Source: Cyanidioschyzon merolae
Taxonomy: Eukaryota
Length of the DNA stretch: 64,000 bases
Assembly (NCBI GenBank): GCA_000091205.1
Contig: AP006502.2
Reading direction: 5' to 3' (one strand)
The translations under genes were made by a program, and so were the position numbers. Positions 3,001-64,000 of the stretch are shown here, piece by piece. A model generated the notes under the pieces. The model searched no databases, had not been told where the DNA came from, and worked only from the letters and a program-made list of their open reading frames with translations. Numbering within the stretch: position 1 is the stretch's first letter; every line of letters begins with the position of its first letter.

Positions 3001-3867
3001 GTGCATACCAGGAGCAAGCGTTTGGTAGTGACAGCACTTCCTGTTGCTGTCGTTCGTGGTGGTCAGTGGAGGTGTCTCAGTACCCGGATGAAGAAGCGTG
3101 GATACCTGGAGGTCATGGTTGTTTCGGGCCGGTTTCGGTGTGTTATCGAGGCTTGTTGACGTTAGGTGCTGGTGACGATGTGGCGCGTCGGCAACGATCC
3201 ACACGAACACGCGTCAGAACAGAACGGGAAGCGTCCGCTTCTGTAACTCGAGCGTAAACGCTAGAGTTTGGGACAATGCCCAATATCACTCGTACAGCGT
3301 TTGGGGGTTCTATCTGTAAAGGATTCCTTTTTATCCACCTAATCGATGACTTGAAACACGCAGGTCTGTCTCGTCTGTCCATTTTCATTGTCAGCAGTTG
3401 AAGCATATCGATGACGGTGTTCATGATCCGATTGTGCTGCTCCTGGATATTGTCGACGCATTTGATGCACAGGCAAATGTTGCGGTCGACGCTTCGCTTG
3501 TTCGTTGCATCTTTTTCGTGGACAGCTCCAATGCATCATTCATTCGCATGGGTGACTCTTGACCGTGGTCGAGTGCTCCCAGATATCTGCCATACCTCTG
3601 CCTCCGAGTGCTGCTGTATAATGCATGCACGCTAGCTTTATCACTCATTTCATGTCCTGGATAGGTAAACAAGTCTTCACGCTATCGCATCCTCCGTTTT
3701 CGCGCGCGGTTCAGTACCTAATGTCGACATGCTTCTTCCGAGCGATAACGATTGGGGATTACGCTGTCCATTGCACACCTAAGTGCAAGGGATTCCATCC
3801 GATATTGGATTTGCACCGTGCAATGTAGTCCATGATGAAACAAGTACTGAAAGCAAAATCCAGACTG

Positions 3868-24820: not shown

Positions 24821-26092
24821 GCAAGTTTAGAGCATTCGGGGAACTCCGAGCAGAGCACTGGCGGGGCTCGTTCACGATTTCTGGCGTCCTTGAAGGGTAC
24901 CGAAGAAAGTCTCTGGGGACAACGGAGACGGACGGAGTACCCATGTGCGTGCGTTCTGTGATACCAAGGCTTTAGTCGACAAACAAGACTCTTTTTCACC
25001 CGCTCAACACGCGTGACCAGAGGCAGTTTGTGGTGGACATCCAAATCGAGTTGAACGACACCATGACCGTCGCCGCAACTCCTATTCTAGAGAACGACAC
25101 GAAAGGCAGGAGCAGGAAGCAGATGCTGCTGCTGCTGCTGCTGCTGCTCAGCATTTCCAGCGCTCTACATGATCGAGAGCAGGGCTTCATCGACGGCAGG
25201 AAGCGCCCTAACAAATGAAAGGTCGGCGTCGCGACTTGGAGTTCGACTTCGACGCCCTGAGCACCTTTTCGAGCAAAGCGACACGCGCGGCACGCTTCAT
25301 GAAGGGAGCGTACGTCATCGTCCAAATGGCTTGTGCAGACGGCCTGTGGCAGTTCCTCGGATCGCACAAGCATCGTCTACCGCTTCGGTTGTGCGGAGGC
25401 AGGAAGCGTCCATTCGACTGCTCGATCCAAGAGCTGGGAACGCAAATGACCGATGAGTAACGTCGCTTGGTGGTAGCCAATGGCGCTGGACGTGCTGTGG
25501 CGCAGAAAGGCTGCACGCCTGCTTCTTGAACGACAGCATATGATAAACCATGAATCGATTCTGAAACCACACCCATGGATATGTTCAGGACGACGTGAAC
25601 GCATCACGAGCTCGGGCGCAAACAAAAACTGTTAGAGAAGAAGAGCGTGAGGCGGAGTCAGATGCACGGGATTGTGTACGGTAAGCTGACTTCACGACCG
25701 ATGGCGAGCTAATCGAAAATGAGAAGCATACTCTGGTGTGATTCTACTGCCAACAATGGGCGCAGGCAGTTTGTAGACCGCGACTCGATCGCCTCGATGA
25801 CCATTCGGGTATGTCCCATGCTTCCGGAGCGTTCAGCGGTATTGGCTCGAGCGAACGAACGGACGAACGAACATCCCGATGAGTCGTTGAGTGCTCCATA
25901 TGGATCATTTCCTGAAACGCTGCAGACTTTTGATGAAAATAACCAGCGTCCGGTCGACAGAGGATTCGATTCGCGCCTGCAGCTAGCCATGGTACCGCGC
26001 GTTTCACCAGTACTCCAGAGCTAAAGCGCGATCTCCATGTTTCCACTGGGAGCTGTTTTTCATGGGAGTTGTTGAACGAAAGCGATGGTGCA
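24821..26092. repeat. left arm of a 1.26-kb inverted repeat pair (reverse-complement of 38214..39474, ~98-99% identical)
   Basis: ORF-track proteins on opposite strands are near-identical (24996..25373- vs 38925..39299+; 25744..26106- vs 38201..38554+). Nucleotide homology stops sharply at 'GCAAGTTTAGAGCATTC' on the outer side and at '...GTTGAACGAAAGCG' on the inner side. Contains a (GCT)n microsatellite at 25125-25148. Confidence 0.9.
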
Positions 26093-27039
26093 TTACTCGA
26101 TATCACAGATTATAGACGTCCATGTCTATCAGGTTTATGCATGGGCCACATGCAGCAAGCAAGTCATCGAGGTTTCTGTTGTGCAAAGAGGTGATGGCTC
26201 CCAAGCAAACCGATTTGCGTATGTGTTGGTTTCTTCCGCGTGTGTGTGTGTGTGTGCCAGTCCATGGCTATGGCTGCTATTTATCCAGATGTCATGGTGT
26301 ATACCCCGTGGTACACAAGGATGAGCGCGACAATGTAAAATCTCTTACGTGCGAGACAAATGTCGTCCAAATGCGACCCAGAGAGTTCTCCATGACACCG
26401 TTATAGAATTGGATGGCTGGTGAACGGTTAAGGCCTTGCGGTCCGCCTGTGTACCTTTCAGATATTGTCTTTGCTGTCCGATACTGAAGCAGAATAGTTT
26501 CGGACGTAACCTCTAGACTTGAACGATAGCACTTCACGCGAACCTGTAGATAGTGTTTGATTCGTCGGCAAGTTCCTTGGTCCAGAGGAGTGGTCGAAAC
26601 CAAGCGAACATCGCCGGTCGCTAATGAAAGTACCGGTGATGATTTCCAGTTTCAACCTGTATCAAGCAGTGCCACCAGAATCTAGGCGATGCATCAGACA
26701 ACCGTTTCGAGCCTGACACGTGAGAGATAATGCTTTTGAACCTATCTTGTTCAGTGAAAATCGCACAACTTGGCTTGGGTGTGTTCTACTTTGAAACTTT
26801 CAAGCGCTTCCCTATTCCATGCCTCAGATATCCCTTGTGCCTTTGGTGCACTATGTATATGGCCCCAAGCGCATCTCTTGCATTCTTTTTACTTGGAAAC
26901 CCAGTAAGCGTTTCACGCTTCCCAGGGGTCATCGGCGACCCGGCTTTTGACGTTCCGTAAGACCTCTCCAGCATCACCTCCATAGAATCTTCCTTGGAAA
27001 CCTTCAGGGAATTTCCATACACTTGATTTGGCGATCCTT

Positions 27040-29561: not shown

Positions 29562-31655
29562 GAGACGCGGCCTTCTCGTGACTAGGTCTGTTCCACGTGA
29601 GCGGACTAGACGGGTACCACGGTGAACGCCAGGGATCGCTCACCGATCCCGATGCAAAGACACACAGTCAGGTACAGACACGCACCCTAGTTTATTCCAA
29701 AGCCCAAGTGGCGCTTCGAGGAGCAACGCTATTTTCCCCAGCGCTTTGGTGGGTAATCTGCAGATGTTGTCCTTCACAAAAATTGGTATCTGATTTGAGC
29801 AGCGCCGAGCGCGCTCACGCGTTTTCGATTTCGATCGATGCTATCGCTTCTGGTACCGGGAAAATCTGCGCAACTCGATGAATGCTGAAGGCTGTTTCAC
29901 TTGGAAGGGCAAGCTTCGGTTGGCAGGCTCTGTGAACGTTGTCGCGTCGTCGCTATAGCCGCGTCAGATTACGATAGGCCATGGGGCTGCTCGTCCTGTT
30001 CGTGCCTTGAGATTTTCTGGACTTTATTTTGTAGATATACTGCCACGTCATTCACAGTGCAACAAGAAGCGCACACGGATGCATACACTGTTAAAAGATG
30101 CTCTATCGTCTTCTCTGAGTTGGTTAGTCGAATGTTCCGGGCTGGAATTCATGGCGTCAGCGCAATCAACACGATTTACGACGCCCTCGAATCAGCGTTC
30201 GAAACATACCCGATATCATCATCCAGTTCATACGTACAGGACTCCACTATTCTGCTTTCCCAATGTCTAGTATGCTCAGATCATGCACGCTTCAAGTTTT
30301 TGATGTTCCTGTCTCAAGGAATTAGGTGCGCGGGGCACTGCTCGCTGCTTGATGAACGAGGAAACAAATTCGACGTCGTTCCTTGACGACTTGTTTACAA
30401 GCTCATGCCAAACGTTCGCTCAACTTATCGCGTCAAATAATTGGTTTCGTTCTAAAGATAAAGCCTATTCTTTTTGTGGCCATCGACGAAACGGCATTCG
30501 ACCCCAGCAATGGTATCTCGGGAGGAATATGCCTCAAGACGATCCTGTCTCTTCTGTTTGCTTGATAACAAGTCTTGGACTCGGACTTGAGTCGTCGCAA
30601 CAATCGCACAAAGCGGAGCGTGCGTCACCATTTTGCATAACGGGAGCGTAGACGGATCAAATCTCTGGAACTCCTTCTCAGATTGGATTCTCCGTCCACT
30701 GCCTGATCCGTCAAGAACAATACTGTGTTGCACAAATCCTCTGTCGAATAGAGCAGCTCGTCGTTGCGCGTGCTGCGGACAGAGAACTACCCTGAGGCAT
30801 TACCACAAAGACGCCTGCGATCGCCGGTTGCAGCTTCGGGATCGAAAAACAGTGGTCGGCATGCGGGGTGCCTTCCGTATCCTCCCCGGGGATGTACTGG
30901 TCGGTGAGGCAAGCTTTCATGTGCCGCAGGCCGCCTTGGAGAAGGGAATATGGTGGGCGTATGGAAAAGCCTGGATCTACTCAAGCGGTATCGCTGTGCA
31001 AGTCGTACCGAGGCCGAATACAAAAAACATTCGCAGATGGCTGCTTTTGCATATGCATGAAATGCGCCGACAGCAACCACAACCTGCGAAATCGGGACGC
31101 TATGGCTGCCTTGAACATCAAACGATGTGTGCGGTAATGACGACGAGACACGCGAGGCTGGCGCGAGCGACCCTCATGGGGCATCCTCTCAGGCTAGAGG
31201 TGAACAAGGAGAAGCTGAAGCAGATGGCAAGCGGCCGATCGAAAAAGGCCAGGAGTGGTCTGTGAGTGAGTATTCCCTTGCCCTGCATGGCCGTGGGACA
31301 TTTTCGTTCCATGGAGCATGCTGGTCTGCAACCATTTTTTAGCTGGCAAATCGATTAAACAGGCCAGGGATCGCCGACTGTGCCCTTGGTATCAGCGCGT
31401 GGTGAAGCAAGCATCATTCCACGCCCTACTTGCAAATTCCATAACCCATACCTCTTCTCGGATATACTGGTCACTTTATTCGTTCTATCGTGCGCCGAGT
31501 ACCTGCCCTGATCATCCGCGATAGCGCCTATTCCGCCTGTGCAGTCGCTGCACGGAGAGAGAACGGCGTCGCCGTACCACTGAGGACGTCGGGTCGAGGA
31601 ACGCTACCCCTGATGGGGAGTTAGAGTACATAATCTTTCTGGGAGCCTGGAAGCT

Positions 31656-31684
31656 CTGCATACAGACCTATAGTCTGTATGCAG
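31656..31684. other. perfect 12-bp-stem palindrome (CTGCATACAGAC-ctata-GTCTGTATGCAG) near the inferred left end of Fanzor copy 1
   Basis: Read directly from the sequence. It could be a sub-terminal hairpin of an IS200/IS605-like end, or an unrelated terminator-like hairpin. Confidence 0.4.
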
Positions 31685-32211
31685 CGCGAAGCGATACGCA
31701 AGGAGATGATTGCGACCAGGGTGGTGCCCAAACGCAGCATACCCGCTCCTTGTACCAGAATAAACTGCGTTTCGAACGAGTTGCTCAGATCTCAATTAAG
31801 TAGCTACCGCTGGGGGAGCATGAAGCACTGCTGTGGCAGACACGTCCGGCTCGCGGGACATTTCGCCTAAAGAATAAACTTTCGGCAATCTGGACGCCGT
31901 TTTCCCCTTTTAATGTTTACCATAGAGGGGAGAGAAATTGTCATATCGTTGCTAGTTAGTCGTGAGTCTCTGTTCTTTGTTCTACATAGTGCGCTCGAGA
32001 CGCGCACCGGAGAGATCAGGCAGGCATGAGTTATGACGCGCTTGTCGCTGTTGAATGGAAACGCGATCCAAATCTTTATGATCTACCTGTAAAGTACACG
32101 TTGTATTTGCATTGAAGTCGTAGCAAACTGTAGTTTCAGTTGAATCGTGTTTCAGCGCTCAAGTAAGAATATTCAAGTGCTTTTTCGCGGTTTATAGCAG
32201 AAGCGTTCAAA

Positions 32212-34477
32212 TTGTGTTCTTTCTCGAAAGAAACTAAAAAAAGAAAGTTATGGAAAAGCAAGTGGAAGATCCTCGAGGGCCGGTACCGCCGGCTGCCAGA
32301 AGAAAAACAAAAAACAATATGGAGTCCAGAGGAACAGGAGAGGACGAAGAAGCAAAGGCAGAAGGCTCTACTTCAAAGGCTGCAAGAAAGACGACTGTAC
32401 GACGAGATGGTGGTGAAAGCCTTTCTTCTTGGACATATCAGGTATCCGTACATACAAAAATTGCGAGAGGCCATCAGAAACCGTGTCGATTCATGCTCCA
32501 AGAGTGTTCGCAAGGCTTCTTTAGGACTGATGCGTATGGCCGGGGATATATTCCGCGACGTGACGCACATGGAAACGGTCGAGATTCCGGACGAGTTTTT
32601 CGATAAGACGTGTATAGGTCAGCTGATACTTGGTACAGAGGAATCGCGGAAGGAAAATGGGCTAGTCCATGGCCTCCACGAAAAAAACATCCCTTTTACA
32701 GCTTCAACGGCGCTCGGTACAAGGGTGACCGGGATATTTACAGCTATGGGGCGATGAAGTACCTCACGAACCTGAAGAACCATTTGACAACGAACCTCGA
32801 ACGTTTCATGATACGCGCCGTGTTTGCACTCTACCCGGGCATCTCGCGCAATGGGAAAGGGGCGATGATCAACGGCATCACGAAAGATCGCAGGCATGAA
32901 GATGAGGTCGAATTCGTCGACAAGAAGGCATCAAACGCGTGCACGAATTAAGCTTCTGTAATCCGTGCGGCTGTACAAGAGCACCGTGCGGTACTGGGGT
33001 TGGCGTATCCAACAGACAAGATATCAGAGTTGAAAGAAGATAAGGAAAGATACTATCGCCTCATCCTGCGATATTTCGTGTTTCTGGACTGTGAACTCGA
33101 ACGCAAGGCGGAAATGAAGCTGAGTGAGGAAAAAATGAAGAGTGGGAGAGACGGAAGGCTGTCCTGTTGGGGAAGCGCTTCAAGGTCGGTGCGTTATGCA
33201 ACATCAAGTCACATTTTGTGAGTATCGATTCCGGCGTCCTCTACGGCATCATGAGGGAGATCTGTTCGGAGTTCGATGTTAGCAGGGAGGAATTCTCCCG
33301 GGAAAACCGGGAGACGTACTGGAAGAACATCTTCGATTTCAAACGTCTCAAAATGAGCGAGCAAAAGTTATTCACTGGGGTGATTGAAACCGATGGAGTA
33401 GCCATGTGTGTACGCTATCGGCGGTTGAAGAAAGATCGGCCAGTTCCGCCCTCGGCTGCGCCCGTCACGAAGGATGAAGAAAAGGAGGAGGCTGGTCCTG
33501 TGGCGCAGGAGGTGCAGGATGACGATCTTGTCGTTGGCGCGGCGAAGCATGAAGATGAGAAGGAGGCGGATCCTGTGATGCAGGAGGTGCAGGATAACGC
33601 CTTTATGGTTGGCGCGGCGAAGCATGAAGAAACGAAGAAGGCGGGTCCTGCGGTGCAGAAAGTGCAGGAGAACGACTTTGTCGTTGGCGCGGACCCCGGA
33701 AACACAAAAAGCATAACTATCGCAGCACCGAAGCGTGCAGAAGATGGTACTGATGGTAACTTGCGTCAGAAGGACATGCGCCTTTTGAGGTGCTCGAGAG
33801 CAAGATACTATCGAGAATCAGGTGTAATGAATGCAAGGAAGAAAATTGAGGCTTGGAACGAAGGAATGAAGGATCACCTGGAAGCTTTAAGCGAGGTGAC
33901 TAGACGAGGAGCGGACTTTGAGGCTTTTCGGAAATTCATGGAAGTTCGTGTTGCCCATTGGGATGCGCTGTGGGAGGAGTATACCAAGCCCCGCTGGGCT
34001 CGTTTGCGAATGAATCTATACTGTGGGAAGCAGCAGGCGTTCGCGAATTTTTTTAATGAGTTGAGCGCCCTGAAGGAGGATGAAAGTCAGAGGCTCGTCG
34101 TAGCGTACGGAGCAGGGCGCTGGAAGATCCGAAAAGGGTGTACACCAGCTCCAACAACGAGAACGTACAAGGAGTGTGCACGGCGTTTTGTTACAGTATC
34201 GATAGTTGAGTTTCGAGCATCGTATACACACCATGAGCTGGGCTGTATACTTCAGAGAGTGGAGATGGAAAAGTGCCAACGGAGCCCTGAGGATATAGCA
34301 AAGTACGGACCACTGACGGAGGAGCAAATGGAAAGGAGGGCAAAAATTCGTGGACTACTTGCATTAGTAAGTGCAACTCCCAACGGCACGAAACGTATGG
34401 AATTTGTGAACCGTGACTTTAACGCCGCTATCAATATACGGAGATGTGCGGTACTGGAGAAGAGACCTCCATCATAG
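32212..34477 (+). pseudogene. TnpB-like / Fanzor-type RuvC nuclease gene, interrupted (two frame changes plus one in-frame TAA)
   Basis: Frame A 32212..~32686 (MCSFSKETKKRKLWKSKWK..., Lys/Arg/Glu-rich and NLS-like) runs to an A7 homopolymer at 32681-32687. Frame B continues (KKHPFYSFNGARYKGDRDIYSYG...KKASNACTN) to TAA 32949-32951, after which the same frame stays open (ASVIRAAVQEH...). Frame C 33128..34477 carries RuvC-I '[16 protein letters not shown]', the Fanzor1-like RuvC-II region 'VVAYGAGRW...IVEFRASYTHHELGC' and RuvC-III 'EFVNRDFNAAINIRRCAV'. Copies 2 and 3 conserve all three parts at the amino-acid level. Confidence 0.6.
33482..33705 (+). repeat. 3 x ~76-bp in-frame tandem duplication inside the Fanzor ORF, immediately preceding/including RuvC-I
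   Basis: Units start at 33482, 33560 and 33635 and encode [26 protein letters not shown] / [25 protein letters not shown] / [24 protein letters not shown]. Only the third unit keeps the catalytic Asp. Copy 3 has a single unit. Confidence 0.85.
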
Positions 34478-34762
34478 ACAAGAGAGCACTTTATTGAACA
34501 ATCTGTCCAAGTCGAACTATATGAGAGAAAGTTGGAAGCAGTAGGAGGTGGCCGATCCAAGAAGGCGCGGAGGCATCTGCACAACTGTCGGAGATGATTT
34601 GTCCAAGGCGCGGTTGCCGCCACGACTGTCCACGCCCGACATCGTTCGAGTTTGAACAGCGTTTTGGAGGCGCGTAATCGATTCATTCGGTTCGCGTTGG
34701 AGCTTTTCGCGGCGTTTTCGTTTCGTGACTGCCGGACACGGGTTTTTGTGAGAAACAGCGAC

Positions 34763-37544: not shown

Positions 37545-38213
37545 ATTGCAAGGTAGCAGCGCCGAGCAACGTTTGCGCTTGAGCGGCAGCTCCCAGAAGT
37601 GACACTCAGGTTTACAGAAACAGAGGGCGCTTTGCACGCACACGCACGGATAAATACGCACGCAGACACGCACGAAATAAACTCAGACACGCAAACAGAA
37701 ACTTGGCGCCACGAAACGAATGCATCAGCGCCACGATCGCTTCGGCGCAATCGGCGATGGGCGCGCTGGTGCACTCGCTGGCATCTGTGCAGCGCGATCC
37801 GTCGCTTACCGGGTTCGTTAAAGGTAACGCGCAGCTGGTGGATGTAGTTCAGTTCATGGGTCTGAATGCTGACGAAAATTGTGCATTTCCAGGTCACTGG
37901 ATTTGTGTCGTGAGACCGCTGCATGTAGAAGCGGGTTGTTCATTCACGGCATCAAAAGCTCGTTGTGTGGTGAGTCGTTTTGCGCATTCAGCCTCGAAGT
38001 GTACGCTCGAATCGGCAACGGTCTGAGAAACATTTTGAGCTATGGGTGGACTCCAAAATCAGGCCAAGCAAAGTGTTTCTCTTCAAACGGGCATGCTGAG
38101 GCGCCATCACGAGCCTTCATAGGAGAGCCTCAAGTCGGGTACCGCGAGTAGAAGCCATGGAGATTTAGCGCGTTATTTTGGCTCTAGTCAGTGACGTGGA
38201 TTGAATGAAACAG

Positions 38214-39474
38214 CGCTTTCGTTCAACAATTCCCATGAAAAACAGCTCCCAGTGGAAACATATAGATCGCGCTTTAGCTCTGGAGTACTGGTGAAACGCG
38301 CGGTACCATGGCTAGCTGCAGGCGCGAATCGAATCCTCTGTCGACCGGACGCTGGTTATTTTCATCAAAAGTCTGCAGCGTTTCAGGAAATGATCCATAT
38401 GGAGCACTCAACGACTCATCGGGATGTTCGTTCGTCCGTTCGTTCGCTCGAGCCAATACCGCTGAACGCTCCGGAAGCATGGGACATACCCGAATGGTCA
38501 TCGAGGCGATCGAGTCGCGGTCTACAAACTGCCTGCGCCCATTGTTGGCAGTAGAATCACACCAGAGTATGCTTCTCATTTTCGATTACCTCGCCATCGG
38601 TCGTGAAGTCAGCTTACCGTACACAATCCCGTGCATCTGACTCCGCCTCACGCTCTTCTTCTCTAACAGTTTTTGTTTGCGCCCGAGCTCGTGATGCGTT
38701 CACGTCGTCCTGAACATATCCATGGGTGTGGTTTCAGAATCGATTCATGGTTTATCATATGCTGTCGTTCAAGAAGCAGGCGTGCAGCCTTTTTGCGCCA
38801 CAGCACGTCCAGCGCCATTGGCTACCATCAAGCGACGTTACGCATCGGTCATTTGCGTTCCCAGCTCTTGGATCGAGCAGTCGAATGGACGCTTCCTGCC
38901 TCCGCACAACCGAAGCGGTAGACGATGCTTGTGCGATCCGAGGAACTGCCACAGGTCGTCTGCACAAGCCATTTGGACGATGACGTACGCTCCCTTCATG
39001 AAGCGTGCCGCGCGTGTCGCTTTGCTCGAAAAGGTGCTCAGGGCGTCGAAGTCGAACTCCAAGTCGCGACGCCGACCTTTCATTTGTTAGGGCGCTTCCT
39101 GCCGTCGATGAAGCCCTGCTCTCGATCATGTAGAGCGCTGGAAATGCTGAGCAGCAGCAGCAGCAGCAGCATCTGCTTCCTGTTCCTGCCTTTCGTGTCG
39201 TTCTCTAGAATAGGAGTTGCGGCGACGGTCATGGTGTCGTTCAACTCGATTTGGATGTCCACCACAAACTCCCTCTGGTCACGCATGTTGAGCGGGTGAA
39301 AAAGAGTCTTGTTTGTCGACTAAAGCCTTGGTATCACAGAACGCACGCACATGGGTACTCCGTCCGTCTCCGTTGTCCCCAGAGACTTTCTTCGGTACCC
39401 TTCAAGAACTCCAGAAATCGTGAACGAGCCCCGCCAGTGCTCTGCTCGGAGTTCCCCGAATGCTCTAAACTTGC
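38214..39474. repeat. right arm of the 1.26-kb inverted repeat pair (partner of 24821..26092)
   Basis: See the left-arm entry; (CAG)n at 39150-39170 mirrors the left-arm (GCT)n. Confidence 0.9.
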
Positions 39475-52232: not shown

Positions 52233-53243
52233 TCACAAAGTCGCGGACGCCTTGCGGTAATAAGGCGGCCACAGATCATAACCGAATCGCTCGTAATCCT
52301 CGGCGTACAATTTTCTAACCCTTTGCGCCAGACGTTCGTTCACGTGCTTGTGCAAGAGGCTTGCTGCGCTCTGGGAGTGCAGGGTATTCCGGCCGCTCGC
52401 TTGTGCTCGCTTCCGCATGGATTCGTGCCACTCGAGACCGGCCTGACCAAACATATCCACGTAAAACTTTCGAAGTGACTCGGGTTCATCTACTTTTCCG
52501 ATACAGTCGAAGAATGTCCGAGGCAGCATGCGAAAAAGGCAGAAGCCCGACTGTGGGCGCCAATGTTCGTCGAACGGTGTCAGATCTGGGGTCATGGTCT
52601 TTGCAGCCTCTTCCAGGTAGTCCACAAAACGTTCAAACGAGTGAGGGTATCGATTTTTCAATGGATATCGTTCCAGTTCGCGTCCAGCTTTGACTTTATC
52701 AAGGTAAGCCGACAGCAAGCGTGTAAGCGGATGGCGCACCAGGGCACCAAACTTCCACGATGGATCCGAGAGCACTCGAAGAAGCTCCTCGTCCTGCAAA
52801 TGAAGGAGCTGCGTCAAGTTTGCGCGGCCTTGCGGATGAATCAAGTGGATTTCATCGGCATCCAGGGGGTCCAGAACCACCCCCAGCGTTTCCCGCAAAG
52901 CAAATGCACGTGCGGCAGTACAACCGGCTTTCGGTATCGAGCAGAGCAGGCGCTGTTGTTTCGCGAATACGATAACGCCAACAAACGATTGCTCCTGTTC
53001 CCGACGCCAAAGATCAGAAATATTCTGAAAATACTCTGCAAGCGGTTTTTCATTGAAGAGACTTGCAAGCACTGGGGCTTGCCAGGAAAAGTTTACTGTG
53101 TGAGAACGATACTCACTCGGAGAAGATGTTTCGAGTCCGGGCGACGGAACCATGAGGGTTTGCAGCACGCGGTGCGAGGCCAGGATCAGAAGCAACACCC
53201 AGAAAACGGTGAACCAGAAAAACCACCGAAACCATAAATGCAT
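52233..53243 (-). CDS. carbohydrate sulfotransferase-like protein 1 (Sulfotransfer_2 family, type II membrane topology)
   Basis: ORF 52233..53369 that starts at GTG in the track; ATG = rc of 53241..53243 (MHLWFRWFFWFTVFWVLLLILA is a TM segment). 5'-PSB-like 'CSIPKAGCTAARAF', 3'-PB-like 'LVRHPLTRLLSAYLDK', 'DEHWRPQSGFCLFR'. Paralog of 58163..59236. Confidence 0.7.
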   Translation of the reverse strand: MHLWFRWFFWFTVFWVLLLILASHRVLQTLMVPSPGLETSSPSEYRSHTVNFSWQAPVLASLFNEKPLAEYFQNISDLWRREQEQSFVGVIVFAKQQRLLCSIPKAGCTAARAFALRETLGVVLDPLDADEIHLIHPQGRANLTQLLHLQDEELLRVLSDPSWKFGALVRHPLTRLLSAYLDKVKAGRELERYPLKNRYPHSFERFVDYLEEAAKTMTPDLTPFDEHWRPQSGFCLFRMLPRTFFDCIGKVDEPESLRKFYVDMFGQAGLEWHESMRKRAQASGRNTLHSQSAASLLHKHVNERLAQRVRKLYAEDYERFGYDLWPPYYRKASATL

Positions 53244-53456
53244 ATCTATTTCCTCTACACCGACACGTTGCTTTCCAGGGAAACGAGTGGGAAGATCGTG
53301 TTCCCTCACTCGCCTAATACAAAGCGCCAATGGCTGCAGAAGCGCTGGTGCGGAGTACGCCGCACGCACGCACCAAACGCCGTTCGAACTTGAACGACGT
53401 CGGGCGTGTACAGTAGTGGCGGGAAAACCGTCTTAGATTAGAAGTCTCCAACTGAC

Positions 53457-56450
53457 GTGCAGATGCCTCCGCGCCTTTTTGGATCGGCCACCTCCTACTG
53501 CTTCCAACTTTCTCTCATATAGTTCGACTTGGACAGATTGTTCAATAAAGTGCTCTCTTGTCTATGATGGAGGTCTCTTCTCCAGTACCGCACATCTCCG
53601 TATATTGATAGCGGCGTTAAAGTCACGGTTCACAAATTCCATACGTTTCGTGCCGTTGGGAGTTGCACTTACTAATGCAAGTAGTCCACGAATTTTTGCC
53701 CTCCTTTCCATTTGCTCCTCCGTCAGTGGTCCGTACTTTGCTATATCCTCAGGGCTCCGCTGGCACTTTTCCATCTCCACCTTCTGAAGTATACACCCCA
53801 GCTCATGGTGTGTATACGATGCTCGAAACTCAACTATCGATACTGCAACAAAACGCCGTGCACACTCTTTGTACGTTCTCGTTGTTGGAGCTGGTGTACA
53901 CCCTTTTCGGATCTTCCAGCGCCCTGCTCCGTACGCTACGACGAGCCTCTGACTTTCATCCTCCTTCAGGGCGCTCAACTCATTACAAAAATTCGCGAAC
54001 ACCCGCTGCTTCCCACAGTATAGATTCATTCGCAAACGAGCCCAGCGGGGCTTGGTATACTCCTCTCCCAGCGCATCCCAGTGGGCAACACGAACTTCCA
54101 TGAATTTCCGAAAAGCCTCAAAGTCCGCTCCTCGCCTAGTCACCTCGCTCAAAGCTTCCAGGTGATCCTTCATTCCTTCATTCCAAGCCTCAATTTTCTT
54201 CCTTGCATTCATTGTACCGGATTCTCGATAGTATCTTGCTCTCGAGCACCTCAAAAGGCGCATGTCCTTCTGACGCAAGTTACCATCAGTACCATCTTCT
54301 GCACGCTTCGGTGCTGCGATGGTTATGATATGTGTGTTTCCGGGGTCCGCGCCAACGACAAAGTCGTTCCCCTGCACTTTCTGCACCGCAGGACCCGCCT
54401 TCTTCGTTTCCTCATGCTTCGCCGCGCCAACCATAAAGGCGTTATCCTGCACCTCCTGCATCACAGGATCCGCCTCCTTCTCATCTTCATGCTTCGCCGC
54501 GCCAACGACAAGATCGTCATCCTGCACCTCCTGCGCCACAGGACCAGCCTCCTCCTTTTCTTCATCCTTCGTGACGGGCGCAGCCGAGGGCGGAACTGGC
54601 CGATCTTTCTTCAACCACCGATAGTGTACATACAATGCTACTCCATCGGTTTCAATCACCCCAGTGAACAACTTTTGCTTGCTCGTTTTGAGACGTTTGA
54701 AATTGAAGGTGTTCTTCCAGTAGGTTTCCCGGTTTTCACCGGTGAAGTCCTCCCTGCTAACATCGAACTCCGGACTGTTCTCCCTCATGATGCCGTAGAG
54801 GACGCCGGAATCGATACTCACAAAGTGTGACTTGATGTTGCATAACGGAACGACGTTGAAGCGCTTCCCCATTCGGACAGCCTTCCGTCTCTCCTACTCT
54901 TCATTTGTCTCTTCACTCAGCTTCATTTCCGCCTTGCGTTCGAGTTCACAGTCCAGAAACACGAAATATCGCAGGATGAAGCGATAGTATCTTTCCTTAT
55001 CTTTTTTCAACTCTGATATCTTGTCTGTTGGATACGCCAACCCCAGTACCGCACGGTGCTCTTGTACAGCCGCACGGATTACAGAAGCTTAATTCGTGCA
55101 CGCGTTTGATGCCTTCTTGTCGACAAATTCGACCTCATCTTCATGCCTGCGATCGTTCGTGATGCCGTTGATCATCGCCCCTTTCCCATTGCGCGAGATG
55201 CCCGGGTAGAGTGCAAACACGGCGCGTATCATGAAACGTTCGAGGTTCGTTGTCAAATGGTTCTTCAGGTTCGTGAGGTACTTCATCGCCCCATAGCTGT
55301 AAATATCCCGGTCACCCTTGTACCGAGTACCGTTGAAGCTGTAAAAGGGATGTTTTTTCGTGGAGGCCATGGACTAGCCCATTTTCCTTCCGCGATTCCT
55401 CTGTACCAAGTATCAGCTGACCTATACACGTCTTATCGAAAAACTCGTCCGGAATCTCGACCGTTTCCATGTGCATCACATCACGATACATCTCCCTCAC
55501 CAAATGCATCAGTCCTGACGACGCCTTGACAATACTCTTGGTGTACGAGTCGACACGTTTTACGATAGCGTCTCGCAACAATTCCCTGTGGGGATCCTTG
55601 ATATGTCCAAGAAGGAAGGTTTTCACCACCTTCTCGTTGTACAGTCGTCTTTCTTGCCGCCTTCGACGTAGGGCCTCTCCCTTTCGGTTCTTCTTCTATT
55701 CCTTTTCTCCTGGACTCGGCACTGTTTTTTGTTTTTTCTGGCAGCCTGCGACCCTGGGCCTCCAGGATCGTGGACATGCTTTTCCATAGCTTTCCTTTTT
55801 GTTTTTTTTTTGAAGAAGAACGCTCTTTGAACCCTTCTGTTATATACTGCAAAAAAACACTAGACTAGAGTTGTTTGAAGTTTGAAACAAAAACGAACTG
55901 AAAGGCTGTACTTTGCAATGACCTCAACGAAAATACAACTTTTAGAACAGAGCTACACGAATGAGATCGAGATCGCGTCTCTCTTCAACGACGGCACGCA
56001 CATCGTGTCAGTTAACTGCGCGATCTCCCAAGCGCGCTCGCTATGCGCAATGCGTGCACCGCGCGAGACGCTACTCGGATCGATGAAGGACACGTGTTCG
56101 ACGCCGCATTGGCACATGCGCGTTAGCATCGCACTGGAGCTGAAATAAAGTATCATAGACCGGAAACTCACGTGGAACGATCTCTTGCTATAAGCTATGT
56201 CGCTCGTGCACATCGCAGTACGGACCTGACATACATGGAGATGTAGGGGCCTGGCACGATACCCCTCGACGCTTCTATCAAAAGCGTAGTCGCGGTAGCA
56301 TCTTACGCTTGTGCGGGTAAGGTATGCATCACACCAGCTTGGAAGGGTTTCGTTCGGTTTATTGATCGTAAATAAAGTAGGCACAGTCGTATAACCAAGT
56401 ATGAATATACGTTTATTCTCTATCCTTGTTATGCATGCAGCGCAGACGCT
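53457..56450 (-). mobile_element. Fanzor/TnpB-like element, copy 2 (inverted relative to copy 1)
   Basis: The rc of 53457.. matches the copy-1 right end exactly up to 'GCGGAGGCATCTGCAC' and then diverges. The internal 3x tandem repeat lies at ~54340-54570. The 5' region is weakly homologous to copy 1 as far as ~56450. Confidence 0.6.
53562..55852 (-). pseudogene. TnpB-like / Fanzor-type RuvC nuclease gene (copy 2), same interruptions as copy 1 plus an extra N-terminal frameshift
   Basis: 436-aa ORF 53562..54872 is ~93% identical to the copy-1 C-terminal ORF (RuvC-I GADPGNT, RuvC-III NRDFNAAINI). ORFs 55089..55370, 55312..55629 and 55481..55852 match copy-1 frames B and A. The homopolymer is A6 here (T6 at 55353-55358 on the + strand). 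Confidence 0.6.
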
Positions 56451-57864
56451 GGAATAAGGAACTGACCTGAATTTTGCTTCTATCCTGCGTTATGTTCCGG
56501 AACTGATGGCACTTCAAGTCATTTCCATGCTACCGTCATTGTCCAAGTTATGGTGCCCGCTACTCTCCCGGATCCGGTGATCTCCGCAGAGGTAAAGCAC
56601 ACACATGTACCGTCCATACCTGCCATGACGTTTGAGCCTTGCGTCTCGCCTGGCACCATGGAGGCACCAGCACCACAGCGCCCCGTACGCGCTAGATCGC
56701 AACGAGTCTCTCGCGAAGCGCATTTTGCTGACACACCGGGGTTTCGATGGATCACGGATCCAAGTGCAGATCCCTCATGTGGCATGGAGGCATGGTCCAT
56801 GCATGCAGAGGAGTTATCCGTATGTCGTTGCGATTTGTGCGCTTCCACACAGGTGGCCCCAAGTATCGAACAGAAGCGTATGCAGAACGCTGCAGCACTG
56901 TCGTTGACAAGTATCGCTACAATATGGGGCCTTTAAAACCGTCAGGTACGCTGGCTTGTTTGCGTTTCTGTCGGACGAAGGTTGGTGACTTGGTTGTTAA
57001 AGAGGCAGCATGGCGTGAGCAGAGGCCGCGGTACTCGCGCAGGCACCATGACCTTCGGTTGGAGCCATAGGTGTGGGTCAGCGTCCCGAAAAGCGATCTG
57101 AAGAACAACGTCTGTGTTATGGGTCGAAAGCGGCTGCTTTTGTACACCACTGGGCGCAGCAAATAACGACACTTTAAGAACGATGCTCGCATCTCTGCAA
57201 CGGACCCGGTTTGAGGCGACTGCCCCTGCAGGCACACGATTCGCCACGCGGTTGCGCTTCTGATCGATGTTGTGCTCGATGAGCGTGGTCACGCATTGCG
57301 ACCGGTAAATAAGAGTATCTTTCCTTACGTTCAAGACTGGCATGCAACCGCGTTTGTGCTCACTAAATGTCTTATTCCAGAACCTAGTTGCACCTGTCGG
57401 AACAAGCATTTCGTTCAGTTGCTGGGGTGCGGCTGGTGCATCATTGTGGTTTGCAACGCGCTCTAGAAAGACGCGCTTCCGGTGCGCACTGCCGAGTGCC
57501 CGGCGGGTAGCGAACGAACGCAGCGTCTCTTATGAGTGACGAGAATCCGTGCGTAGCGCTGCTCGTTCCTCTCCGGACTGGAACGCTGGTGTCAAAGGCG
57601 GTGACTCGCAGACGGGAATCTAGTGCTCGTCGCAGGAACCGTTGTGGCACTAGACCGCACAGCTCCCATGACGCTGCTATACGCAAACACGCTGAAGGAG
57701 TCAGACGACGTTCCCTATGTCAAATTTTGCACCAGGACGCGTCCAGATGTTGCCACTACCGCATGTAGATTTCGAGCTCGTTAAAAAAAGAACCTTCTGG
57801 CCCTGCCAGCTTGGCGGATAGATCCCATTGCCAGATGCGTTCACCCGAATCCAAGCGAATGGAC

Positions 57865-58162: not shown

Positions 58163-59236
58163 TCACGAGAGCGCGCCATCTGCATCCACCTCATCCGGCC
58201 ACAAGTCATAGCCGAAATTGATATAGTCTTCCGCGTATAGTCGCTGGATGCGCTTTGCTAGGTCCTCACTAACGTACGCCCGCAGCTTGGCATTCGCGGA
58301 TCGCGCATGTGCGGCCTGCTGACGATGCGCTGCGGCTCGTGCGTCTTGATCCTGGACCCAGCGGCGTCCGTCCTCGTCGAACATATCGATAAAAAGTTGT
58401 CTCAACGCGCTGCGATTCTCAACTTTCACGACGTAATCATACAATTGACGGGGTATAAAACGAAAAAGACAAAACCCCGACTGAGGTCGCCAGTGCTCAT
58501 CGACCCAGTCCCAGTTTTTCCGATACCGACGTGCAACGTCTTCCAAGATGCTTACAAAATGCTCAAACGATGTTACAGGTTGCCGCTGCAGTGGACGACG
58601 CCAAAGTTCCCTCTGGCCAACAATTTTATCCAAGTACGCTGATAGGAGGCGTGATAGAGGGTGTCGCACCACAGCAGCGTACCTCCAGTCCGGGTGCGTC
58701 AGAGCATAATGAACCTGGTCGTCTGAGAGTGACCCCAGCTGCAGCAGGAAGCGTTTGCTGACGGGATGAATATACGAGAAATTCTGCGCATCCGTCGGAT
58801 TGAGCTCAACGTTCAGCTGCTTGCGCAGGGCGAACGCCCGCAGGTTCGTGCACGCAGCCTTCGGAATACTACAGAGCAAGCGTTTCTCTTTCGGAAAAAC
58901 AATGACCCCAACGTAGCTGAGTTTCTGCTCCACTCGCCACTCTGGCTTCAGTTTGAGGCTGATGTTGTGCTTTCCGTTCACAAGACGTTCCGCTGCCGAC
59001 GGAGTTGCGGGCCCTATCGATCCCTGTCCGATAGTTGTGTCCGTTCTCTTTGGGAGCTGCTCAGATGAGAGTGGGCCCCACAGCGCGGAGCGTGAAGCAA
59101 TGTTGAACGCCGTTGACGCCACAGCCAGGCACCACAAAATGAAAAGCACTGTCAGCACCTGTCGCCAGCTCAGCCTCGAAGACATAAACAAACGTATACC
59201 CATTCGGCGACTGCGTACTAGCGAAACCCAGCTCAT
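58163..59236 (-). CDS. carbohydrate sulfotransferase-like protein 2 (Sulfotransfer_2 family)
   Basis: 357 aa, ATG = rc of 59234..59236. N-terminal TM 'VLTVLFILWCLAVAS'. 'CSIPKAACTNLRAF', 'AVVRHPLSRLLSAYLDK', 'DEHWRPQSGFCLFR'. About 50% identical to 52233..53243. Confidence 0.7.
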   Translation of the reverse strand: MSWVSLVRSRRMGIRLFMSSRLSWRQVLTVLFILWCLAVASTAFNIASRSALWGPLSSEQLPKRTDTTIGQGSIGPATPSAAERLVNGKHNISLKLKPEWRVEQKLSYVGVIVFPKEKRLLCSIPKAACTNLRAFALRKQLNVELNPTDAQNFSYIHPVSKRFLLQLGSLSDDQVHYALTHPDWRYAAVVRHPLSRLLSAYLDKIVGQRELWRRPLQRQPVTSFEHFVSILEDVARRYRKNWDWVDEHWRPQSGFCLFRFIPRQLYDYVVKVENRSALRQLFIDMFDEDGRRWVQDQDARAAAHRQQAAHARSANAKLRAYVSEDLAKRIQRLYAEDYINFGYDLWPDEVDADGALS

Positions 59237-61303: not shown

Positions 61304-63309
61304 TCACGCGCAATGTCCGACGATCATGAGAGGTAAATGAATATCCACTCGCAGACGCCTCCCAGTCTTTCTCGACCGGCCTGCTTCTGTCGGTTTCAGC
61401 ATCTCCCTATACATTTCGACGCTGAAAGGCTGTCCAGCAAAGTTGGCTCGCGTCTGCTCCGCGGGTCTCTTCTTCAGCACCGCGCATCTTCGGATACTGA
61501 TAGCAGCGATAAGGTCTCGGCTCACAGACTCCATGCGTTTCTTGCCGCCGCCTGTACACGGCAATGCGAATAGGCCTCGAACTTTCGCCCTCCTTCCCAT
61601 TTGCTCTTCCGTCAACGCTCCGTACTTTCTTACATCCTCGGGGATCCGCTGACGCTTTTCCATCTCGACCCTCTGAAGTGTACACATCAGCTCGTGGTAC
61701 ACGTAGGACGTTCGGAACTCATCTGTAGGTATCGTGACGAAACGCCGTGCGCTCTCCTTGTACGCTCGTGTCGACGGAGCTGGCGTAGTCCCTTTTTTCG
61801 ACGCCCAGCGCTCTGCCCCGTATGCAACACGAGCCTTTGACTCTCGTCCTCTTTGAGGGCGTTCAGCTCGTTGGAAAAGTTGGCGAATGCACGCTGCTTC
61901 CCACAAAAGAAGCTGATACGCAGACGAGCCCAACGGGGCTTTGTGTACTCTTTCCACAGCGCCTCGTACTGAGAAACGCGAACTTTCACGAATTCCCGAA
62001 AAGCTCGAACGTCCGCCCGACGGCTCGTCACCTGGCTGATCGCTGCTAGGTGTTCTTTGACTCCTGAGTTCCACTTCTCACTCTGTATCCTTGGATTCCT
62101 TACCCAGACTCTCGGTAGCACCCAGCGCTTGAGAACCTCAAAAGACACATGCCTTTCTGACGTAAGTTACCTTCAATGCCGTTTCCCCCGCGTTCGAGTG
62201 CTGCGATGGTCACGGTATCCGTGTTCTCGGGGTCCGCGCCAACGACAAAATCGTTGCTCTGCACCTGCTGTGCCGCAGGGCCCGCCTCCTTTTCTCCACG
62301 CTTCGTCAAAATCGACAACAAAAACGGAATAGGACGATCCGCCTTCAACTGCCGATCGTGCACATACATGGCTACTCCATCGGTTTCGATGACGCCTGTG
62401 AATACCTTTTGCTTGCTCGCATGGAAACGTTTGAAATCGAAGATATTCATCCAGTATGTCTCCCGATTTTCGGCGTTGAACTCTATGTTCCTTACATCGG
62501 ACTCTGGACAGACCTCCTTCATGATGCCGTCAACGGCTGTGGAGTCGATAGTCACGAAATGTGATCTGATGTTGCACATTGGAACCACGTTGAAGCGCGT
62601 CCCCAGAAGCGCCGCCTTCCCTCTCTCTTACTCTTCATTTCTCCCTCACCCAGCTCCTTTTCGGCCTTGCGTTCGAGTTCTCAGTCCAAAAACACGAAAT
62701 AGCGCAGGATGAGGTGATAGTATCTTTCCTTATCTTTTTTCGTATGTGCAACCTTTTTGCTGGGTTGACAAGCCCCAAGACTGCACGGTGCTCTTGTAGA
62801 GCAGCACGGATTCCAGAAGCTTCGTTGTTTCTCCTGCGTGATGTCTTCTTGTCGACGAATTCGATCTCATCTTCACGCTGGCGATGGTTCGTGACGTCAT
62901 TGATGAAGGCCCGTATCCATCTACTAGACAGGTCCGGGTAGAGTGCAAACACGGCGCGTATCATGGAGCGTTCGATGCTCATGGTCAAGTGGTTCTTCAG
63001 GTTCGTGAAGGACTTTTTCGCATCGTAGGTGTAAATATCCGCCTCAGCCTCGTACCGTCTACAGCTGAAGCGATATTCGGCGTAATTCTAGTGGAGAACG
63101 TGCACTCGCTCGTCTCTCCTCGTCGTTCTCCCTGTTCCAAGCATCAGGTTGCTGATATATATCATATGGAAAAATTCCTCCGGAATCTCGACTATTTCCA
63201 TGTGCGTCAGGTCGTCGTGCATCTCGTTCACCAAATGGATTCGTTCTGACGAGGCCTTTATATTACTCATGGAGCACGAGTCGACACGGTTTCTGATGGC
63301 CTCTCGCAA
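61304..63309 (-). pseudogene. degenerate TnpB-like / Fanzor-type nuclease gene (copy 3), frameshifted; RuvC-III Asp/Asn replaced
   Basis: See above. The frame A to frame B junction is in frame here, separated only by one TAG, which shows the ancestral ORF was continuous across that point. Confidence 0.5.
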
Positions 63310-64000
63310 CTTTTCCTTTTACGGATCCATGACATGTTTAAGAAGGTAGGCTTTCGCCACCGTCCAGTCGTACTGTTGTCTTTCCCGCAGCCTTTTCTGC
63401 GTGGGGCCTCCTGCCTTTGCTTCCTTGTCCTCTACTGTTCCTCTAGACTCGGCACTGCTTTTTGTCTTTTCCGGCAGCTGGCAACAGCGGTCCTTAAGGA
63501 TCCTCTATTTGCATCCCCATAACTTTTTTTATTTTTGAAAACGAACGCACTTTGAACGGATCTGATATGAACCGCGAAAAATCACTTGAATAAACTGAAC
63601 TGAGGCTTGAAACACGATTGGATTGAAAGCGCACACTTTGCTATGACTTCAATGCAAATACAACTTGTACTTTAGAGCAACAAGCTAATGATCAGAATTG
63701 CATTTCTCTTCAACTGCGAGATACGAATCGTGTCTCATTCCTGCCAGATTTAGAGGTGCGCGGATCGACCGGGCTTTAGAAAAAAGAACAGATACGAACC
63801 ACTAGCTAGGAAACACAAGTTCTTTGGCAATCTACGGTAAACGTTTCAAGGGGAAAAGGTGTCCACATTGTCGGAAGTTTACCTTCTACGCGGAAAGTGC
63901 CGCAAGCCGGACGAGTCTGCACGTCTTGCGCTTCATGCTCCCTCCAGTGTTGGGTGGTGTTGTAAGATATGAGCTGCTCTTGTGCAATCCGGTTTATTCT
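61400..64000 (-). mobile_element. Fanzor/TnpB-like element, copy 3 (diverged; 5' part runs off the window)
   Basis: ORFs 61304..62074 (…RMESVSRDLIAAISIRRCAVLKKRP, degenerate RuvC-III), 61687..62148, 62100..588 (…FVVGADPENT, RuvC-I, single repeat unit), 62635..62988 and 63088..63309 are homologous to copy-1 frames C, B and A. The 5' non-coding region 63530-64000 is ~80-85% similar to copy 1 31748-32210. Confidence 0.55.

Follow-up and report, generated by a model that had tools for sequence, protein, structure and literature searches.

The window, a stretch of 64,000 nucleotides, contains three "nuclease" repeats, all of which are members of CMe-1A, a Fanzor1-carrying DNA transposon of Cyanidioschyzon merolae 10D. 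Two proteins encoded in the window matched exactly the C. merolae 10D entries BAM83381.1 and BAM83389.1, and the CMe-1A consensus aligned to all three copies with 81–87% identity (blastn). Copy 1 (31342..34661, + strand) is a full-length, pseudogenised element. Positions 84–3137 of the consensus align to it at 84–87%, consensus position 1 falls at approximately 31342, and its 3′ end, ...GAACAGCG, was located at 34654–34661. Copy 2 (53378..56477, − strand) is inverted relative to copy 1, as an earlier note on this DNA had stated, and is likewise pseudogenised. It aligns with consensus positions 687–3137 over 56009–53406 at 85–87% and ends at 53378–53385 with the reverse complement of GAACGGCG. 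Its variant 5′ region, which extends up to 56477, was found also at other loci, with which it forms a subfamily (L003, L020, L009, and L030). Copy 3 (61351..64000, − strand), an older and degenerate element, starts at ~61350 (or ~61270) and runs off the window past 64000; it aligns with consensus positions 413–3084 at 81% and shows 70–80% identity to copies 1 and 2 throughout. These limits replace those that the earlier note had set for the three copies. Just upstream of the RuvC-I motif, copy 1 carries three tandem 75-nt (25-aa) repeats (33468..33692, + strand), and the same three-unit array is present in copy 2 (54347–54571), as against a single unit in the consensus and in copy 3. A host sulfotransferase gene, BAM83389.1 (52236..53243, − strand; Sulfotransfer_2, Pfam PF03567, E 5.7e-24), lies downstream of copy 2, whose true end is 135 bp away. 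Because copy 2 and copy 3 are each followed by a sulfotransferase gene, the two being paralogous, a segmental duplication of an "element + sulfotransferase" unit was considered. This was dropped, since the sulfotransferase proteins are only 51% identical, their genes can hardly be aligned as DNA, and the distance from element to gene is not the same (135 bp vs. ~2 kb).

CMe-1A was described previously as a Fanzor1 element family of the C. merolae genome (Bao and Jurka, 2013, Mobile DNA 4:12; PMC3627910), and what we report is thus a known family in an ordinary process. According to that description, the element is ~3.2 kb long (consensus of 3169 bp, given in supplement 2), is present in ~150 copies, each ~80% identical to the consensus, has no terminal inverted repeats and ends at the 3′ side with ...GAAMRGCG. 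Its 5′ 635 bp are common to TE-N2_CMe, its protein CMe-1 is a Fanzor1 of 734 aa encoded by a single exon, and it was left unclassified by the authors who defined Helitron2 (PMC3627910). The window copies belong to the same genome and element, and their end ...GAAAGGCG agrees with the published one. They differ from the published CMe-1A in the 5′ region of copy 2 (~470 bp) and in the number of 75-nt units in copies 1 and 2 (three vs. one). Bao and Jurka (PMC3627910) did not describe the probable conversion patch that copies 1 and 2 share and that is presented below.

In tblastn comparisons, CMe-1 was ~75–76% identical to copies 1 and 2 over the C-terminal 440–590 residues (294–734 in copy 1, 149–734 in copy 2), while the N-terminal parts reached 50–64%. 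The stretch REAIRNRVDSCS of the N-terminal block occurs in copies 1 and 3 and not in copy 2, as had been noticed before, and represents the family consensus state (CMe-1: REAIRNRVESYS). The copies are indeed mosaic, as proposed on that ground, but the N-terminal likeness of copies 1 and 3 is shared ancestral sequence and not a product of exchange. Searches with CMe-1/P0004 (tblastn) showed that three frames are needed to follow the coding region in copy 1 and in copy 3 and two in copy 2, with in-frame stops in each of them. In copy 2 the frameshift occurs at an A-run; copy 1 has a different frameshift at the same run together with additional ones. Both have in common a premature TAG (34475..34477, + strand, in copy 1; 53562–53564 in copy 2), at which most relatives read through to ...RRLHVSWRRFV-stop. 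Copies 1 and 2 are dead genes, and therefore passive recombination substrates rather than active nucleases.

The RuvC motifs GADPGNT, (D)EFRTS, and NRDFNAAINI are present in the window ORFs, and residues D484, E656, and D725 were invariant in an alignment of 36 sequences (24–39% identity). Single-sequence and narrow-profile searches of Pfam, NCBIfam, and PDB with the 436-aa ORF gave nothing meaningful; matches to designed Kelch proteins in PDB were discarded, being due to the internal 25-aa repeat. Neither this ORF nor the 1005-aa ORF with its stop had an exact match on any contig. The family profile matched the green-algal Fanzor1 proteins CRe-1/CRe-4/CVu-1/VCa-1 (hhalign; 98.3% probability, E 1.5e-14), and a broader profile matched the Fanzor1 structures 9cf0 (E 3.5e-22), 8gkh (1.1e-12), and 9cer (1.2e-5). 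Judged by these profiles and by the literature, CMe-1 is a member of Fanzor1. An AlphaFold2 model of P0004 (20-sequence alignment) had a mean pLDDT of 31. CMe-1 resembles SpuFz1 (8GKH), PpFz1 (9CF0), and GtFz1 (9CER) (Saito et al., 2023; Jiang et al., 2023) in the profile homology of the WED/RuvC part and in the D-E-D triad. Unlike those proteins, the CMe-1 clade has neither a C4 zinc ribbon nor a Pfam match, and the window copies are pseudogenes. Between RuvC-II and RuvC-III we observed DEFRTSYTHHELGC-x10-C and then no further Cys (HH...C...C only), no Cys column was conserved in the wider CMe-1 clade, and PF07282 (OrfB_Zn_ribbon) did not match the window ORFs or 15 relatives. The clade without the zinc ribbon comprises >1400 cluster representatives.

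Copies 1 and 2 lie 19 kb apart in inverted orientation. They are 92.2% identical over 2569 bp with the differences concentrated toward the 5′ side, which is in line with the ~93% and the 5′ bias reported earlier for their ORFs. A sliding-identity comparison and a recombination test, both proposed in the earlier note, showed clearly that the divergence is not uniform. Identity is ~72% over 32009–32564, rises to 97% over 32565–34582 and returns to 72% over 34583–34661. The homogenised tract thus spans 32565..34582 (+ strand) in copy 1 and 53457..55474 (− strand) in copy 2, with 62 differences in 2019 columns. Its 5′ breakpoint at 32564/32565 is sharp, lies inside the element and its coding region, and mirrors the 3′ edge at 34582/34583. 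A two-breakpoint model had its optimum at 32567–34580, with a logLR of 149 vs. a maximum of 15.8 in 500 permutations. Since both edges are sharp and both fall inside the element, we interpret the tract as a recombination (gene-conversion) patch and not as a trace of transposition. Sub-blocks within it are 98.8, 89.9, 97.2, and 99.7% identical (chi2 63.8, p 9e-14), and this heterogeneity suggests repeated events.

The 3′ edge of the tract is the position that had been taken for a precise element end. Near-identity indeed stops sharply after ...GGCATCTGCAC (34582 / 53457), 214 bp from the sulfotransferase ATG (53243), and the reverse complement of 53457–53561 corresponds to the tail of copy 1, although not fully, as there is a single mismatch (A/G at 34561). 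The flanks beyond this point were said to be unrelated. Instead, homology persists ungapped and in the same register for another 79 bases (34583–34661 vs. 53456–53378), of which 57 (72%) match (binomial p ~1e-14 at p=0.3), and it is lost only after ...GAACAGCG / ...GAACGGCG (34661 / 53378), which is the family 3′ terminus ...GAAMRGCG. In an alignment of 38 sequences (35 unique metagenome copies and the three window copies) the 3′ region is kept up to ...GAAAGGCG, the consensus end that corresponds to 34661 in copy 1, except in copy 3 and two divergent metagenome copies. Every metagenome copy on a contig reaching that far, as well as the published consensus, could be aligned across the boundary for ~79–83 nt further. 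The boundary sits 7–8 codons before the stop of the ancestral Fanzor ORF (...GRRLH/VSWRRFV-stop, with the stroke at the boundary), and the coding tail frame TRENFVGQPLKVELYEKKLEAVVGGRSKKTGRRLHVSWRRFV with its stop is retained in most copies. Past the boundary, copy 1 (34583..34661, + strand) has the last 5 codons of the ancestral ORF (HNCRR-stop) followed by the 3′ terminal region with hairpins, the terminal one of which recurs across copies. The corresponding tail of copy 2 (53378..53456, − strand) consists of VSWRLLI-stop and the 3′ terminal region, and its peptide matches the metagenome protein P0001 (HVSWRLLL). The position 34582 / 53457 is not a transposon terminus; it lies inside the element, 79 bp short of the CMe-1A 3′ end and within the ancestral ORF. 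It is best read as the 3′ edge of a ~2-kb stretch homogenised by recombination between two old, broken copies.

We consider it probable that the patch was generated by repeated ectopic gene conversion between these two inverted, pseudogenised CMe-1A members. Each copy would have come in by a separate insertion; outside the true ends, the flanking sequences have no relation to one another. To that extent the transposition put forward in the earlier note holds, with the copies belonging to a transposon family of ~150 copies, but not at the end proposed for it. Copies 1 and 2 are diverged family members, ~72% identical at both extremities, and after insertion, non-allelic conversion would have overwritten the central 2.0 kb of one copy with that of the other, possibly more than once, as the uneven identity of the tract suggests. 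Ectopic gene conversion between dispersed repeats or paralogues likewise leaves a sharp-edged patch of high identity in otherwise diverged homologous sequence, likewise involves linked, inverted partners, and shows internal heterogeneity that points to repeated events. Copies 1 and 2 differ in that an ancestral state giving direction or date was not found for them. The patch is already in place in the metagenome contig L002, which is orthologous to the copy-2 locus (98.2% over 5.5 kb); this contig breaks off within the repeat, its tail being of copy-1 type, which may stem from a chimeric assembly or from a tract that is different in the population concerned. A pre-conversion state or an empty site was sought at the metagenome loci and not found, L002 ending and the sulfotransferase contig L054 beginning inside the element, and there was no ortholog of the copy-1 locus among them. 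The consensus-matching alleles gave no information on the direction of conversion. A weak indication that copy 2 was the donor comes from the nearest relatives of the tract, more of which are also nearest relatives of the 5′ part of copy 2 itself.

A patchwork of this kind could also be produced without any exchange between resident loci, if a chimeric CMe-1A master, recombinant or template-switched, with ends of one lineage and a middle of the copy-1 lineage, had formed copy 2 by transposition, or the other way round. The family is modular, with alternative 5′ regions, variable repeat numbers and the 5′ part common to TE-N2_CMe, and no pre-conversion locus was found, both of which would fit such an origin. 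Nevertheless, we regard it as unlikely: two switches, placed symmetrically inside the element, would be required, the 99 / 90 / 97 / 99.7% patchwork better fits repeated exchange between linked residents than one event, and the combination seen in copy 1 or copy 2 occurs at no other locus among the 53 fetched. Homologous recombination in C. merolae is known to be efficient, and a homing-like process has been shown for bacterial TnpB. A comparable process would be conceivable here, with the nuclease and guide RNA of an active family member cutting within or beside one copy and homology-directed repair copying from the other, given that Fanzors are RNA-guided DNA endonucleases with a guide derived from the element 3′ end (PMC10432273, PMC10530073). 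Yet no cut site is linked to the tract edges, copies 1 and 2 are both pseudogenes, no guide RNA emerged from folding, z-scores or Rfam, and ordinary double-strand-break repair accounts for the data equally well, so that we give this version very little credence. Selective constraint on the nuclease coding sequence would at first sight explain why the middle of copies 1 and 2, where most of the ORF lies, has remained similar. We attach next to no weight to it, because copy 3 is uniformly 70–85% identical to both copies there; besides, copy 3 and all other relatives together reach just 70–88% over that region, copies 1 and 2 are frameshifted with a common premature stop, and the 5′ breakpoint falls inside the coding region. 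An actual transposon 3′ terminus at ...CATCTGCAC, followed by unrelated flank and thus a signature of transposition, is equally hard to credit because the similarity of the flanks runs on past it: identity does drop abruptly at that base, and copy 3 and the 19-kb fragment, when aligned locally to the consensus, also stop near 3084, but the consensus and the 35 other family copies of the 38-sequence alignment, copy 3 excepted, run ~83 bases further with conserved motifs, the base falls within a conserved reading frame, and the 5′ breakpoint inside the element is just as sharp.

The sharp boundary is therefore a false lead: no new transposon end lies there, nor does it bear on insertion beside the sulfotransferase gene. 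With repeated ectopic conversion as the probable source of the patch, the compact haploid genome of this alga would still be homogenising its old Fanzor elements by ectopic recombination, and pairwise identity of copies would therefore be unfit for dating insertions or mapping element ends. Lying inverted 19 kb apart and being 97% identical, the two 2-kb tracts could also mediate inversion of the intervening segment.

The true termini offer some indications on the nature of the element, for which the literature searched contains no classification. No target site duplication was seen at copy 1 (flanks ...CCATTTTTTA and TTTTGGAGG). Six independent 5′ junctions of CMe-1A type follow TTT(T) within 2 nt, and most 3′ flanks of CMe-1A copies begin with TT/TC, while copy-2-type 5′ ends have no T-run. 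The consensus contains a 10-nt subterminal inverted match, in which GACAAAACGT at the 5′ side pairs with ACGTTTTGTC at the 3′ side. In L016 and copy 1 the two sides of the pair change together; L024 shows 1 mismatch, and in L025 and L037 the pairing is lost. With the Chlamydomonas non-autonomous Fanzor1 carriers of Helitron2 type, CRe-1/2/3 (PMC3627910), CMe-1A has a 3′ hairpin in common, and it may also share with them the lack of target site duplications and terminal inverted repeats, the insertion between 5′ flanks that end in T-runs and 3′ flanks that begin with T, and a short, asymmetric inverted repeat that joins the 5′ end to a site near the 3′ end. In CMe-1A, however, the candidate 3′ repeat is ~60 nt from the end instead of 20–30 nt, half of the few copies in which both ends are present show mismatches in the inverted repeat, and C. 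merolae has no known RepHel partner. We tentatively raise the possibility, which we hold to be rather doubtful, that CMe-1A is a single-strand HUH/Helitron2-like (or IS605-like) non-autonomous element. It would insert in an oriented manner at T-runs without target site duplication and carry a conserved terminal hairpin and a short subterminal 3′ sequence, overlapping the Fanzor stop, that has to pair with its own 5′ end, and its last ~60–170 nt would double as a guide-RNA scaffold, the flank supplying the guide. If this were true, the variable stretch just past the boundary would be an element-specific end-matching signal.

The T-run junctions, the terminal hairpin and the loss of the zinc ribbon provide a starting point to classify CMe-1A and to find its guide RNA. 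None was demonstrated for CMe-1A by folding, z-scores or Rfam, and the literature searched holds no report of one. With 32 aligned 3′ ends as input, the consensus structure from RNAalifold was weak (−6.9 kcal/mol) and had zero covarying pairs, shuffle z-scores of the terminal 60 nt of single sequences ranged from −2.6 to +1.2, and the 3′ end had no Rfam match at gathering thresholds. The 3′ 170 nt of CMe-1A are conserved, and the terminal hairpin is found in most copies, with G-U pairs and one compensatory change.

A repeat scan and blastn revealed three related segments in the window: copy 1 on the + strand (31342..34661), copy 2 on the - strand (53378..56477; 92.2% identity to copy 1 across 2569 bp by blastn) and copy 3, also on the - strand, which is ~74% identical and extends past the window edge at 64000 (61351..64000). 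Copy 2 is thus inverted relative to copy 1, and the earlier note's value of ~93% identity for their nuclease ORFs is close to the one measured. All three are repeats of CMe-1A, the one Fanzor1 family described in the C. merolae genome (Bao & Jurka 2013, PMC3627910), with a 3169-bp consensus and ~150 copies each ~80% identical to it; the family lacks TIRs, its TSD is undetermined and it was left unclassified (PMC3627910). Copy 1 aligned with consensus positions 84-3137 and could be extended to position 1 at ~31342, copy 2 aligned with 687-3137 and copy 3 with 413-3084. Across the C-terminal 440-590 residues, the conceptual translations of copies 1 and 2 are ~75-76% identical to the CMe-1 protein, and in their N-terminal parts the value is 50-64%. 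Two further proteins encoded in the window match C. merolae 10D proteins exactly. The family, host and protein have been published before, and gene conversion is an ordinary process among repeats; new here are the precise two-copy patch, copy 2's variant 5′ region, a missing zinc ribbon and the junction features.

Copy 1 ends 102 bp before the ATG (34763) of an HMG-box ORF. The distance from the end of copy 2 to the ATG (53243) of a Sulfotransfer_2 gene (52236-53243, - strand) is 135 bp, and that from the end of copy 3 to a second such gene (58166-59236, - strand) is ~2 kb. These two Sulfotransfer_2 paralogues share 51% aa identity, and each has a CMe-1A copy upstream of it in the same orientation; a simple tandem duplication of copy plus sulfotransferase units was rejected, as the DNA separating the units could not be aligned.

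The earlier note had placed an exact shared 3′ end of copies 1 and 2 at 34582 / 53457 and read it, with unrelated flanks beyond, as a signature of transposition. Compared ungapped in the register p <-> 88039-p, the two copies show 1 difference in the 303 bases preceding ...GGCATCTGCAC (34582 / 53457), and near-identity does stop abruptly at this point, 214 bp from the Sulfotransfer_2 ATG (53243) as proposed. The flanks, however, are related: 57 of the next 79 bases match in the same register (72%, p ~1e-14), and similarity ends only after ...GAACAGCG (34661) and ...GAACGGCG (53378). Transposition accounts for the dispersal of the copies, but its signature sits at 34661 / 53378. Most of the 52 related loci retrieved from hot-spring metagenomes align with copy 1 as far as 34629-34667, the exceptions being highly divergent copies and copies cut by a contig end. 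Across an alignment of 38 sequences, columns remain conserved at 0.7-0.95 through ...GAAAGGCG(T), after which conservation collapses; the published consensus terminus, ...TTTTGAAAGGCG, is exactly the 3′ end placed here for the family. The consensus ORF (906-3110) stops 24 nt beyond the boundary position. Copies 1 and 2 each have a 436-aa ORF closed by a TAG that metagenome proteins read through, running on as ...RPPELTRENF...GRSKKTGRRLHVSWRRFV*; the boundary therefore lies 7-8 codons before the ancestral stop.

Identity between copies 1 and 2, in copy-1 coordinates, was 71.7% over 32009-32564, 98.8% over 32565-33127, 89.9% over 33128-33422, 97.2% over 33423-34279, 99.7% over 34280-34582 and again 72.2% over 34583-34661. 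A two-breakpoint model (32567-34580) gave a log-likelihood ratio of 149, the maximum over 500 mismatch permutations being 15.8. Copy 3 is only 70-85% identical to both others throughout the region, so selective constraint cannot explain the block. A central 2.0-kb segment (32565..34582 in copy 1, 53457..55474 in copy 2) is homogenised, with both edges inside the element, and the partners are diverged, inverted and 19 kb apart; judged from the sequences, such a pattern is typical of ectopic gene conversion, which would have homogenised the middle of two such CMe-1A members. Identity within the tract is heterogeneous (chi2 63.8, p 9e-14), and conversion between the two copies was probably repeated. 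A chimeric element that arose before insertion would agree with the recovery of no pre-conversion locus among those examined, yet it is less parsimonious because the tract is internally a patchwork. The mosaic structure proposed in the earlier note holds, but with copies 1 and 2 as the exchange partners; 'REAIRNRVDSCS' is indeed present in copies 1 and 3 and not in copy 2, but this likeness is the consensus state (CMe-1: REAIRNRVESYS). The 5′ part of copy 2 is of another sublineage. A metagenome ortholog of the copy-2 locus, L002 (Ga0080006_1184230; 98.2% over 5.5 kb), ends within the repeat with a copy-1-type tail (locus positions ~5415-5474), and copy-1 and copy-2 alleles alternate in its 3′ half of the tract; either the assembly has joined the two near-identical copies into a chimera, or the hot-spring population carries a different conversion tract.

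Compared with intact relatives, each of the three copies is a pseudogene with in-frame stops, needing three (copies 1 and 3) or two (copy 2) reading frames. One A-run carries different slippage frameshifts in copies 1 and 2 (A7 and A6, where A5 is required). Both share a premature TAG (34475-34477 / 53562-53564). TAG also occurs at the same codon, after ...EKRPP(E/S), in several otherwise diverged members, including L010, L020/L019, L005 and L029; other members have TGG, TCG, TTG, CTG or CCG. That a stop recurs at one variable codon, 42 codons ahead of the normal end, suggests either a dispensable C-terminal tail, which includes the basic stretch GRSKKTGRR, or tolerance of the stop.

Searches of Pfam, NCBIfam and PDB with single sequences or with a narrow profile gave no match. 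The family profile matched green-algal Fanzor1 proteins (PMC3627910 supplement) with 98.3% probability (hhalign), and an exhaustive profile search yielded a CMe-1-like clade, represented in the window at 53562-54872, of 1468 cluster representatives at E<=1e-3, those tested having no Pfam match. A profile of 36 sequences (alignment A3: metagenome protein P0004 plus 35 representatives) matched the solved Fanzor1 structures 9cf0, 8gkh and 9cer (E 3.5e-22 to 1.2e-5). In A3 the D, E and D catalytic columns are invariant, whereas the canonical C4 zinc ribbon, strictly conserved according to the 2013 survey (PMC3627910), is absent, with no conserved cysteines at the position that the ribbon normally has in TnpB/Fanzor. 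Immediately 5′ of the RuvC-I motif (VVGADPGNT) lies a tandem array of a 75-nt (25-aa) unit, KHE(E/D)xKEAxPxxQEVQDNxFxVGA, with three units each in copy 1 (33468-33692) and copy 2 (54347-54571), one in the consensus and copy 3, and up to ~5 in metagenome relatives (P0002, P0003, P0004); unit number varies inside a nuclease domain boundary.

In Fanzors, which are RNA-guided endonucleases, the element's conserved 3′ end is the source of the guide RNA transcript (PMC10432273, PMC10530073). In CMe-1A the conserved stretch is the last ~170 nt, and most copies can form a terminal hairpin, CGUCGUUC...GAACGGCG or GCGUUUUUC...GAAAGGCGU, in which G-U pairs and one compensatory pair occur. Alignment-wide structure of the 3′ ends showed no covariation, their folding energies were not distinct from shuffles and Rfam gave no match; a putative guide RNA from this end is therefore only plausible. 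At the 5′ junctions compared (window 31332-31342; L036, L024, L016, L021/L025 and L003), flanks of CMe-1A-type copies carry T-runs, with TTT(T) within 2 nt of the element start, while 3′ flanks start TT/TC in the pattern TT(T/C)G (alignment A2, columns 205-215); no target-site duplication was seen at the junctions compared. A 10-nt inverted match links 5′ GACAAAACGT with 3′ ACGTTTTGTC, a site that overlaps the stop codon; the two sides co-vary in L016 (CAGAACGTTT) and copy 1 (CAAATC) and have mismatches in L025 and L037. In this small sample the junctions look similar to those of Helitron2 elements; a reading of CMe-1A itself as a Helitron2-like element is mostly inference and has a low probability.

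A second inverted repeat pair (~1.27 kb, 98-99% identity; 24821-26094, + strand, and 38204-39474, - strand, extending to ~39978) brackets copy 1. It carries degenerate Fanzor-like coding remnants with many stops, 26-36% identical in amino acids to CMe-1 residues ~170-700, and appears to be a second Fanzor lineage that has diverged much further; the 2013 survey gave a single Fanzor family for this genome (PMC3627910). C-terminal Fanzor remnants (34-43% aa identity) were found at 31039-31271 (+) and 19081-18740 (-). As the former ends ~70 nt upstream of the copy-1 5′ end, copy 1 seems to have inserted beside the 3′ end of an older element. In all, at least seven segments derived from Fanzors are present in the 64-kb window.
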